From the NCBI GenBank assembly GCA_965208125.1, contig OZ242320.1, positions 1,408,001-1,472,000 of the forward strand: 64,000 bases of DNA, given 5' to 3'. Source of the DNA: Candidatus Latescibacterota bacterium. Its GTDB lineage: Bacteria > Latescibacterota > UBA2968. How positions within the stretch are numbered: position 1 is the first letter of the stretch; every line of letters begins with the position of its first letter. The notes beneath the pieces are model-generated. The model did no database searches, had not been told where the DNA came from, and saw only the letters and a program-made list of their open reading frames with translations. Shown piece after piece: positions 51,629-54,044 of the stretch. A program made the position numbers and the translations under genes.

Positions 51629-53137
51629 CTATTGAATTTTCGCCCAATCGGGCATCACCCCGAGTTCAATACCCAGCACAACGCGACCAACAACAGCAAT
51701 CGCAGCAGTAATCATCACAGCCCCAACCAAATTCAACCCCACGCCCACACGCGCCATATCGCGCATAGAAATTCTATCCGTACCAAATACAATCGCATTG
51801 GGTGGCGTGGCTACCGGCAACATAAACGCACAAGAACACGACAACGTAGCTGGAATCATCAGCAACAATGGATTGAGACCCACAGCCACAGACAACGCCG
51901 CCAAAACCGGAAGAAACATCTCCGCCGTTGCCGTATTGGAAGTCAACTCAGTCAAAAAAGTCATCATCACACACAAACCACCGACCAAAAATAGAGGATG
52001 CAAGCGCCCCATATCCTCCAACTGCTGCGCGCACCAGAGCGACAACCCCGACTCTTTAAAACCACTTGCCAGAGCAAATCCACCGCCAATCAGCAACACA
52101 ATATGCCAGGGTACGTTGCCAGCCGTTTGCCAATCCATCACCCTGGACCTCGCGCCATCTCGCGCGGGCACGACAAACAAAATCAGAGCCATTGCCATAG
52201 CAACCGACCCATCGGTTATCAATCCGCCAGATTCGAAAAACTGAGACCAGCCCGGCAGCGTCCAATCGCCAATTTGAATGGGGCGTCTCGACAACCACAA
52301 CAGCGCCAACAACACAAAATCGGCCAGCACGACCTTCTCGGCAAACGACATCGGCCCCAACTCGGTATATTGCGTTCGCACCACACTCAGATCAATATCA
52401 TCGCCGCGACCGCGAATGCCAAAAACGAGGCAAAGCGCACCCCACGCACAAACGAGCATCACGCATGCCAGAGGCAGAGCAAAAGCAAACCACGTCGCAA
52501 ACGAAATCTCGGGAACCTCTGAAAAATGAATGGATAAAATCCTCACAAAAGACAAATTGGTCGGCGTGCCCACAAGCGTTGCGCTCCCACCAATTGAAGC
52601 CGCATAAGCCACCCCCAGAAACACCGCCGTGCCAAAAGAACTATTGGCCACACCCTGCTCTTCCATTCTAACCACAATTGCAAGTGCAATCGGCACCATC
52701 ATCATCGTTGTCGCCGTATTGGAAATCCACATGGACAAAAACGCCGTCACCAGCATAAATCCCGTCAGAATACACCGGGGACACCCCCCAAAAAGAAGCA
52801 GCAAGCGAAGGGCAATTCGCCGGTGTAAATTCCAGCGCTGCATGCCCAATGCCACCATAAAACCACCGACAAACAAAAAGATAATGTGATTCAAATAAAG
52901 TGGCGCAACCTCTTGCCCGCTCATAATACCCAGCAGGGGAAACAACACCACGGGCAACAGTGCCGTCGCAGCCAAAGGCACGGCCTCTGTCATCCACCAA
53001 ATCGCCATCCAGCAGGCCACACCTGCCGTATGTGTCACCTCGGGATGTCCCGGCTTGAGATCTCCAAAGACTGTGACTCCCACCCCAATCACAGGACCGA
53101 GCCACAGCCCCCAGCGTTCTATTTTTTTATTTAGCAT
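51629..53137 (-). CDS. SLC13/DASS sodium-coupled anion symporter
   Basis: WW.TEAVP, SMWISNTATT, GTPTN, TELTSNTAT, AFMLPVATPPNA. Confidence 0.95.
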   Translation of the reverse strand: MLNKKIERWGLWLGPVIGVGVTVFGDLKPGHPEVTHTAGVACWMAIWWMTEAVPLAATALLPVVLFPLLGIMSGQEVAPLYLNHIIFLFVGGFMVALGMQRWNLHRRIALRLLLLFGGCPRCILTGFMLVTAFLSMWISNTATTMMMVPIALAIVVRMEEQGVANSSFGTAVFLGVAYAASIGGSATLVGTPTNLSFVRILSIHFSEVPEISFATWFAFALPLACVMLVCAWGALCLVFGIRGRGDDIDLSVVRTQYTELGPMSFAEKVVLADFVLLALLWLSRRPIQIGDWTLPGWSQFFESGGLITDGSVAMAMALILFVVPARDGARSRVMDWQTAGNVPWHIVLLIGGGFALASGFKESGLSLWCAQQLEDMGRLHPLFLVGGLCVMMTFLTELTSNTATAEMFLPVLAALSVAVGLNPLLLMIPATLSCSCAFMLPVATPPNAIVFGTDRISMRDMARVGVGLNLVGAVMITAAIAVVGRVVLGIELGVMPDWAKIQ

Positions 53138-53235: not shown

Positions 53236-53341
53236 GGAACCTTTCCAGCCTTTAAAAGTAAAAGAATATGCGACAAAGCGTGTCGCAAAAATATCGGCGT
53301 TGACTCCTATACCCCGGCTGAGTCAACGCCGTTACTTGTTT
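53236..53341 (+). ncRNA. Candidate sRNA unit 1 (ECF-like promoter plus two hairpins)
   Basis: GGAAC-N16-AGTAAA; hairpins 53269-53287 and 53295-53331 (12-bp perfect stem, loop CUAUACCCCGGCU); U-rich tail. Confidence 0.45.
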
Positions 53342-53344
53342 CTT

Positions 53345-53436
53345 GGAACTCTTTACCGTACAAATGCGTCTAATTCGGTACCATGCAACATCCCTTGAGG
53401 CGTTGGTTATACCCTCCCAACCAGCGCCTCTTTTTT
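53345..53436 (+). ncRNA. Candidate sRNA unit 2 (ECF promoter plus hairpin with AUACCCUCCC loop)
   Basis: GGAAC-N17-CGTCTAA; 12-bp stem 53397-53430; U6. Confidence 0.6.
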
Positions 53437-53446
53437 ATTTATAAAC

Positions 53447-53538
53447 AAAAAAAGCCTTTGAGGGCTCCCTCCCGACACCCTCAAAGGTTTGTAATTCTGC
53501 TACCGAAGCAAAATAAATTCCCAAAATAACCCTGTCAA
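53447..53538 (-). ncRNA. Candidate sRNA unit 3 (sigma70 promoter plus hairpin with UGUCGGGAGGGAG loop)
   Basis: TTGACA-N17-TATTTT (53538-53510); stem 53455-53487; U7. Confidence 0.6.
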
Positions 53539-53539
53539 C

Positions 53540-53651
53540 AAAAAAAGCGGGCTGCCAACAGCGCTCTATTTATCGGGAGGGAGGAAATAAACAGAATTGC
53601 TGGGGCAACCCGCTGTGCATAAAACATACCCAACTTCAAAAACAACGTCAA
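53540..53651 (-). ncRNA. Candidate sRNA unit 4 (sigma70 promoter plus long hairpin with UUCCUCCCUCCCG loop)
   Basis: TTGACG-N17-TATGTT (53651-53623); rod hairpin 53546-53614; U7. Confidence 0.62.
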
Positions 53652-53816
53652 GAGTATAGACGAAAATTATTACTTAAGCAGCGTTTGAATATCAAAAACC
53701 GTTGTCCGCTGCTAAAAAAGGTACGCGCCGATCTGCCCCGTCTTTTCCGTTGCTTTTCTCGCGTAAACGAATAATTTATCACATCGTCCCTGAAACCTAT
53801 TGCGAAAGGTCCTCTT

Positions 53817-54044
53817 ATGTTTTTCCTGGCAAACCTCCTCACAATTTACGGCTACATCATCATTGCGCGAGCACTCATCTCATGGATAAATCCCAATCCA
53901 TACAATCCACTCATCAGAATAATATGCGCCATCACAGACCCGGTACTCGTACCCCTTCGCCGTCTGTTGCCCGACCTGGGTGGGCTGGACATCTCGCCCT
54001 TTGTCGCCCTCGTCATTATCTGGTTTATCATATCCCTGATTTAG
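53817..54044 (+). CDS. yggT: YggT family membrane protein
   Basis: RALISWINPNPYNP...ITDPVL.PLRR.LP..GGLDISP. Confidence 0.93.
   Translation: MFFLANLLTIYGYIIIARALISWINPNPYNPLIRIICAITDPVLVPLRRLLPDLGGLDISPFVALVIIWFIISLI

Follow-up and report, generated by a model that had tools for sequence, protein, structure and literature searches.

Introduction

In Bacillus subtilis, the G-rich small RNA (sRNA) RosA acts as a sponge for two C-rich sRNAs, RoxS and FsrA, and RsaE with RsaI of Staphylococcus aureus is a parallel case (PMC8216469). The motifs of the cyanobacterial sRNAs Yfr1 and Yfr2 are nearly complementary, and Yfr10 shares the Yfr1 motif (PMC6778093).

We analyzed a 64,000-nt stretch of DNA (the window) from a Latescibacterota genome of 5.75 Mb that is assembled as one contig, has 51% G+C, and is 96% complete. 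Four short hairpin units occupy a 680-nt interval of this window, where they separate a gene for a DASS family symporter from yggT. Like the RoxS/FsrA/RosA set as described, the genome has several predicted sRNAs with C-rich single-stranded regions and one stand-alone, complementary G-rich sRNA, unit 3. Unit 3 also resembles RosA in that a housekeeping-type promoter and a Rho-independent terminator are predicted for it from sequence. However, these RNAs are not homologous to RoxS/RosA or RsaE/RsaI in either sequence or structure, the phylum is Latescibacterota, and the RNAs are known here in silico only. Unit 3 is about 58 nt long with one G-rich loop, whereas RosA is described as about 229 nt long with three G-rich regions. 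Unlike in the RosA system as that article presents it, the partner and the decoy candidate stand in tandem, and the terminator of one overlaps the promoter of the other. The seed of unit 4 recurs in units 2 and 4b, much as the Yfr1 motif recurs in Yfr10. However, compared with Yfr1/Yfr2 as described, the motif sequences, the structures, and the phylum are unrelated, the loops of terminator hairpins carry the motifs, and the genes are adjacent.

A full-text literature search for small RNAs of Latescibacteria returned nothing relevant. Units 3 and 4 appear to add a new example, from a phylum that is unstudied, to a regulatory design that is already known. Should the pairing prove real, it would be the first riboregulatory circuit for an uncultured, sponge-associated Latescibacterota lineage. 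The design of a C-rich seed and a G-rich decoy, found in Firmicutes and echoed in cyanobacteria, would then have emerged anew in the FCB group, with none of the usual RNA chaperones. Our three new covariance models, R1 to R3, allow these families to be traced in metagenomes and metatranscriptomes.

Units 3 and 4 form tandem hairpin units on the minus strand

The first-pass annotation of this DNA took units 3 and 4 to be adjacent sRNAs and read both arms on the minus strand. Promoter-like sites, U-runs, and an asymmetry of G-U pairs support two distinct units on that strand, each with a promoter and a terminator of its own (Table 1). Unit 4 folds into its hairpin with a minimum free energy (MFE) of -35.3 kcal/mol and a z score of -8.0, which was equalled by none of 200 shuffles. 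All 21 genus orthologues, and distant homologues too, retain the -35 hexamer of unit 4, TTGAC(G/A), between variable flanks. RNAalifold pair tables for the 21 genus genomes place unit 4 on the minus strand, with 89 G-U cells and 2 A-C cells. In the genus orthologues, UCCCUCCC (21/21) and AUAAAUAG are invariant. The predicted unit 4 displays a C-rich seed in the loop of a stand-alone sRNA, as an RNA of the RoxS/RosA type does.

Table 1. Positions of the features discussed, in window coordinates unless a genome or locus is named
Feature	Position	Strand	Details
DASS family sodium-coupled anion symporter gene	51629..53137	-	TIGR00785, 247 bits
Unit 1	53236..53346	+	GGAAC-17 nt-GTAAAA promoter-like site, then two-hairpin RNA with loop CCUAUACCCCGGCUGA; 20-genome alignment
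Unit 2 promoter-like site	53345..53373	+	GGAAC-17 nt-CGTCTAA; both blocks conserved, spacer variable
Unit 2, predicted sRNA	53374..53437	+	Terminator hairpin 53397-53430, loop AUACCCUCCC; converges on unit 3
Unit 3, predicted sRNA	53446..53503	-	Variable 5' tail, then terminator hairpin with G-rich loop
Unit 3 loop, 11-nt arm	53465..53475	-	UCGGGAGGGAG; inverted repeat I6
Unit 3 promoter-like site	53510..53538	-	TTGACA-17 nt-TATTTT; 10/12 matches
Unit 4, predicted sRNA	53541..53616	-	About 76 nt, single long hairpin then U-run; inferred ends
Unit 4, 11-nt arm	53573..53583	-	CUCCCUCCCGA; complement of unit 3; inverted repeat I6
Unit 4 apical loop	53575..53585	-	UCCUCCCUCCC; C-rich seed; unpaired in MFE and centroid structures
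Unit 4 promoter-like site	53623..53651	-	TTGACG-17 nt-TATGTT; 9/12 matches
yggT (YGGT family)	53817..54044	+	Pfam PF02325, E 3.2e-21; divergent from units 4 and 3
4b, unit 4 paralogue	G000:C1:4889431-4889509	+	Outside window; L003/L173
Sigma-70 family gene inserted between units 3 and 2	L022 587-1513		G013
Sigma-70 family gene inserted between units 3 and 2	L023 572-1525		G012
Sigma-70 family gene inserted between units 3 and 2	L020 727-1650		G020
Paralogues with GAGGGAGGA leader	G000:C1:1361635, 1364282, 1366365	+	Outside window
Paralogue with GAGGGAGGA leader	G000:C1:2393119	-	Outside window

Unit 3 starts with a variable 5' tail of about 25 nt and ends in a terminator hairpin with the loop GUCGGGAGGGA (MFE, -20.5 kcal/mol; z, -2.49). 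The -35 element of unit 3 directly adjoins the U-run of unit 4, which makes a terminator-promoter overlap, and its TTGACA shows no variation in 26 of 26 tandem loci. UCGGGAGGGA of the loop is invariant in the 21 genus genomes, and the stem and 5' tail vary. The complementarity to unit 4 goes beyond the GGGAGGG core and takes in the loop letters AUC in deep-branching species and UGUC or UAUC in the others. In deep-branching species, unit 4 complements all 11 nt of the loop, AUCGGGAGGGA. Unit 3, as predicted, has the features of the second member of a RoxS/RosA-type pair, a stand-alone RNA with an exposed G-rich complement. The anatomy of units 3 and 4 is established, their strands are assigned from promoter-like sites, U-runs, and G-U asymmetry, and both are presumably transcribed.

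Unit 3 could instead be read on the plus strand. There, it might form an RsaE/RoxS-like two-hairpin RNA together with unit 2, or the hairpins might merely be terminators of the flanking genes. Both hairpins show CCCUCCC on the plus strand, and the Rfam model for RsaE/RoxS (RF01820) gives a faint plus-strand match that scores 16.7 bits, where the gathering score is 79, with an E value of 3.1. Rfam as a whole gave no match in the window at the gathering score, and the best E value in E-value mode was 0.43. However, RNAalifold counts for unit 3 in the 21 genus genomes favor the minus strand, with 25 G-U cells versus 3 A-C cells; those three cells are G-U on the opposite strand. A U-run lies 3' of unit 3 on the minus strand only. 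Unit 3 homologues at other genomic sites have TTGACA at an equal distance upstream, on the G-rich strand, and have no A-run before the hairpin. The unit 2 hairpin is followed by a U6 run, and unit 2 is terminated on its own ahead of unit 3. Inserts of 1.2 to 4.2 kb part unit 3 from unit 2 in G013, G012, G020, and G002, and the unit 3 and unit 2 matches are on separate contigs in G005; unit 3 remains beside unit 4. A plus-strand unit 3, which the first-pass annotation had named as grounds for giving up its proposal, is contradicted by the G-U asymmetry, the U-run, and the side on which the promoter-like site lies. We regard the plus-strand and flanking-terminator readings as very unlikely.

Several smaller features were seen in this region. 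In some species, a sigma-70 family gene with regions 1.2, 2, and 4 is inserted exactly between units 3 and 2; it is intact in G012 and G020 and has one in-frame stop in G013. The minus strand has one more promoter-like site (TTGATA, 18 nt, AATAAT; 10/12 matches) at 53666 to 53695, upstream of the one assigned to unit 4, and one RNA-library contig reaches position 53705. A 48-codon open reading frame on the plus strand (53383 to 53529) was not taken as a gene. It spans U/A runs whose length varies among species.

The loops of units 3 and 4 are complementary

We recovered the 11-nt perfect complement between units 4 and 3 that the first-pass annotation had reported, as inverted repeat I6, with 100% complementarity and 97 nt between the arms. 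The stems are unrelated, as had also been claimed; this was confirmed from the sequences and the predicted folds. The match grows to 13 pairs with one G-U pair (UGUCGGGAGGGAG against CUCCCUCCCGAUA) and lies at both hairpin tips. The final GA of the unit 4 arm is within the weak closing pairs of the apical stem, outside the free loop. This complementarity is established.

An inverted repeat of at least 11 nt anywhere in the 801-nt region is not rare, being present in 16 of 150 dinucleotide shuffles. When just the two apical segments, 15 nt each, were shuffled in a way that preserved their extreme richness in C and in G, an 11-nt match between them arose in 3 of 20,000 shuffles. The 11-mer occurs four times on the two strands of the 5.75-Mb genome, and two of these occurrences are the studied locus. 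By our estimate, pairing would yield a net -10.8 to -14.5 kcal/mol once the cost of opening is paid, a range that ignores the topological strain of a 13-bp loop-loop helix. Full-length RNAduplex predictions for units 3 and 4 gave unrealistically long duplexes and were replaced by counts of contiguous pairs.

The complementarity is conserved among relatives

The unit cluster is present in all 20 other genus genomes, and units 3 and 4 are in all 21. Searches of the order (53 genomes) with the covariance models detected unit 4-type RNAs in 32 genomes, some of them just terminator-like, unit 3 in 28 genomes (E up to 0.05), and unit 2 in 26 genomes. R1 matches of about 40 nt in G030, G047, G021, and G041 were rejected as unit 4; they are terminator stems that lack the C-rich apex. 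No unit 3 match came from 79 genomes of the class's two other families. The tandem unit 4-unit 3 order and the terminator-promoter junction also occur outside the genus, in G024, G048, G049, G036, and G042, and the arrangement spans two families. Conservation of units 3 and 4 is established at this level.

The intramolecular stems covary. In the 26 tandem loci, 16 of 36 stem pairs changed on both sides, which was reached by none of 500 shuffles, and 95.1% of the stem cells were paired, versus 35 to 54% when the alignment was slid. While the stems covary, the loops show no change in any of the 21 genus genomes; therefore, selection acts on the loop sequence itself.

Complementarity is retained at 8 to 13 pairs in 27 of the 28 unit 3/unit 4 pairings. 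Counted as contiguous Watson-Crick pairs, the match within the genus spans 11 nt in 17 genomes, 13 nt in G019, 10 nt in G020 and G009, and 8 nt in G001. Outside the genus, it is 10 nt in G036, G048, and G049 and 9 nt in G043, and both G042 copies have an 11-nt match that includes G-U pairs. The exception is G024, with 6 and 3 pairs around two mismatches. Loss of complementarity in orthologues had been named in the first-pass annotation as a result that would speak against pairing. Instead, the match is kept across two families.

The same annotation had proposed to look for loop covariation in relatives, and here the outcome was mixed. In the 26 tandem loci, 93.5% of the cells of the inter-RNA helix are paired, versus 35 to 64% when slid. 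However, none of its 13 pairs has a compensatory change, and the observed pairing was reached by 148 of 500 shuffles. The loop-loop match is maintained by conservation, not by covariation. A double change occurs in genus g11 (G042 and G043), where CCCG to CCCA in unit 4 accompanies UCGGG to UUGGG in unit 3 and turns a G-C pair into an A-U pair. The apparent co-evolution comes from this one lineage. Uncompensated loop changes are seen in G001 (leaving 8 nt), G024 (leaving 6 and 3), and G036 (one pair lost).

This pattern bears on the main rival explanation. Both units may be real sRNAs that do not regulate each other, with the complementarity a by-product of SD-like and anti-SD-like sequence. 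In this scenario, the C-rich RNAs would act on G-rich mRNA sites, and unit 3 would act on C-rich leaders or on the CCUCC end of 16S rRNA. Separate constraints on each loop could produce an inter-RNA helix that is conserved without covariation. The 3' end of 16S rRNA in this genome is the canonical CCUCC, and loops containing GGAGG could meet ribosomes. Moreover, unit 3 is present with no unit 4-type match in G041 (one contig), and unit 4 is present with no unit 3 match in G046. However, the match covers the whole unit 3 loop and goes beyond the SD-like core, the chance level of 3 in 20,000 was obtained with composition kept, and the tandem linkage is maintained in two families. The double change in one lineage also counts against this explanation, and abundant RNAs with 11 to 13 exposed complementary bases would be expected to pair if they are present together. 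We consider independent function possible, though we would not bet on it.

Two of these genomes have unusual arrangements. G042 carries two unit 3-like genes (L137 1622-1689 and L166 1501-1542), one adjoining unit 4 and the other elsewhere, and both have adapted to CUUCCUUCCCAA, the variant seed of the G042 unit 4. In G041, which belongs to the sister family, the unit 3 homologue (L161, G041:C1:804968-808032) is also divergent from an adjoining yggT. The slot expected for unit 4 is occupied there by another GC-rich hairpin without the C-rich seed.

Unit 2 and paralogue 4b share the unit 4 seed

A second match to R1, the unit 4-type model, was present in every genus genome, and we call this paralogue 4b. 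Alignment shows 4b to be conserved in all but one of the 21 genus genomes, and G023 has it too. Its loop is UCCCCUCCCA or UUCCCUCCCG, and the G000 copy has UCCCCUCCCA. The seed UCCCUCCC(G/A) is common to three sRNA families, namely, unit 4, unit 2 read on the plus strand, and 4b, and the G-rich loop of unit 3 matches all three of its bearers. The unit 3-unit 2 match in 19 species is 7 nt in 10, 8 nt in 1, and 10 to 12 nt in 8. In G020, a G-to-A change in unit 3 extends it to 12 nt. The match between unit 3 and 4b is 7 to 9 nt in 20 of 20 cases. Because the unit 3 loop matches all three RNAs, it fits a decoy for a C-rich sRNA family. A TTGACA promoter-like site and a gene lie directly downstream of 4b.

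The first-pass annotation had matched the CCCUCCC loop of unit 2 to GGGAGGG of unit 3. This holds with unit 2 on the plus strand, which is the supported strand, and fails with unit 2 on the minus strand. Unit 2 has 32 G-U cells versus no A-C cells on the plus strand (RNAalifold), folds with an MFE of -20.2 kcal/mol (z, -3.93), and has the loop UUCCCUCCCGA in 9 of 19 orthologues. Unit 1 folds at -30.0 kcal/mol (z, -4.21), and a U-run lies 3' of its hairpin in deep-branching species.

A conserved motif, GGAAC-17 nt-(C)GT(A/C)(A/T)A, with a variable spacer precedes units 1 and 2 (53236 to 53437, plus strand), and 4b likewise has a conserved GGAAC-N17-CGTTTA upstream. In all three, the GGAAC and CGT blocks are conserved at fixed spacing around a variable spacer, as in ECF-type promoters. 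The motifs look like the ECF-sigma promoter consensus. It looks as if one ECF-sigma promoter class might drive these three small RNAs. MicA, RybB, and MicL are RpoE-dependent sRNAs of enterobacteria. Units 1, 2, and 4b are like them in having ECF-like motifs before short terminator-ended RNAs, with a promoter class that is tentatively assigned by likeness to the consensus. A loose GGAAC/CGT pattern was not enriched genome-wide (32 matches versus 35 for the reversed control). A candidate for ECF autoregulation, GGAAC-N17-CGTCCAA at an ECF sigma gene, was rejected as a promoter because it sits on the start codon.

RNA-library coverage and RNA-binding proteins

Contigs from four RNA-library runs (X1, X2, X3, and X7), 90 to 99% alike, cover units 1 to 4. 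Their depth over the units is low and similar to the level of the flanking genes (2 to 10), and these contigs lack strand and ends and may include DNA. The stretch from 53714 to 53849 is covered by no RNA-library contig.

Profiles for Hfq (PF17209) and ProQ (PF04352) gave no match in this one-contig, 96% complete genome. The CsrA profile (PF02599) gave no match in any of the 21 genus genomes, all of which have unit 3; control genomes gave matches. These results bear on a reading that the first-pass annotation had offered as an alternative, in which unit 3 is a protein decoy whose GGA loop titrates CsrA or another RNA-binding protein. RNAs of the CsrB/RsmZ class have many GGA sites. Unit 3 shares with them a GGA motif in a hairpin loop, and CsrA occurs elsewhere in the family, in four genera, among them that of the unit 3 carrier G024. 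However, unit 3 has a single GGA-bearing hairpin, it occurs throughout a genus in which CsrA was not found, and the CsrA-bearing G021, G022, and G023 have no unit 3 match. Neither Hfq nor ProQ offers itself as another protein partner in this genome. We find a protein decoy extremely unlikely.

A proposed sRNA-decoy pair

We propose that unit 4 is a C-rich sRNA and unit 3 its G-rich decoy, a pair that acts independently of Hfq and resembles RoxS/RosA, and we give this reading about an even chance. The two would be independent, tandem minus-strand sRNA genes with sigma-70-type promoters, and in each the terminator hairpin would carry the functional loop. The unit 4 seed UCCCUCCC(G)A, unit 2, and 4b would pair with G-rich mRNA stretches, including strong ribosome binding sites. 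Unit 3 would pair loop to loop with unit 4 and, to a lesser extent, with unit 2 and 4b, needing neither Hfq nor ProQ to form these putative duplexes. As a decoy or sponge, unit 3 would neutralize the C-rich sRNAs. The reverse is equally possible, with unit 3 neutralized by the C-rich RNAs.

More speculatively, and on balance doubtfully, the locus could be a hard-wired module in which unit 3 sets a threshold for three sRNAs with C-rich seeds and genomic linkage tunes the ratio of regulator to decoy. If so, a constitutively promoted G-rich hairpin RNA would be set beside two seed sRNAs on stress-type (ECF-like) promoters, and the decoy gene would be fused to its main partner through the shared terminator-promoter junction. 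Read-through of the unit 4 terminator would yield a self-neutralized two-hairpin RNA. All of this would take place in a candidate phylum without detectable Hfq, ProQ, and CsrA.

Candidate mRNA targets

The first-pass annotation had cast unit 3 as an SD mimic that titrates anti-SD sRNAs. The decoy part of that proposal agrees with the loop matches to unit 4, unit 2, and 4b. However, the usual SD in this genome looks AAGGAG-like and not GGGAGGG, by a crude and partly circular gene call. Therefore, "SD mimic" is a looser description of unit 3 than "seed mimic."

Targets of unit 4 were sought among 4,772 crude start sites, which were picked with an SD filter, so the test is partly circular. A complement of at least 7 nt to the unit 4 apex was found at 423 sites. 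Shuffled seeds gave 239 +/- 109 such sites, and 14 of 200 reached the observed number, so the excess is not significant. The genome has 15 copies of the 10-mer UCGGGAGGGA, roughly what we ourselves estimate for chance.

Four paralogous genes of about 600 codons share a GAGGGAGGA leader at the ribosome binding site that matches the unit 4 seed over 9 nt (Table 1). From this match, they are possible targets of unit 4. One of the four was scanned with Pfam and has an FlgD_ig domain and a weak secretion-tail domain.
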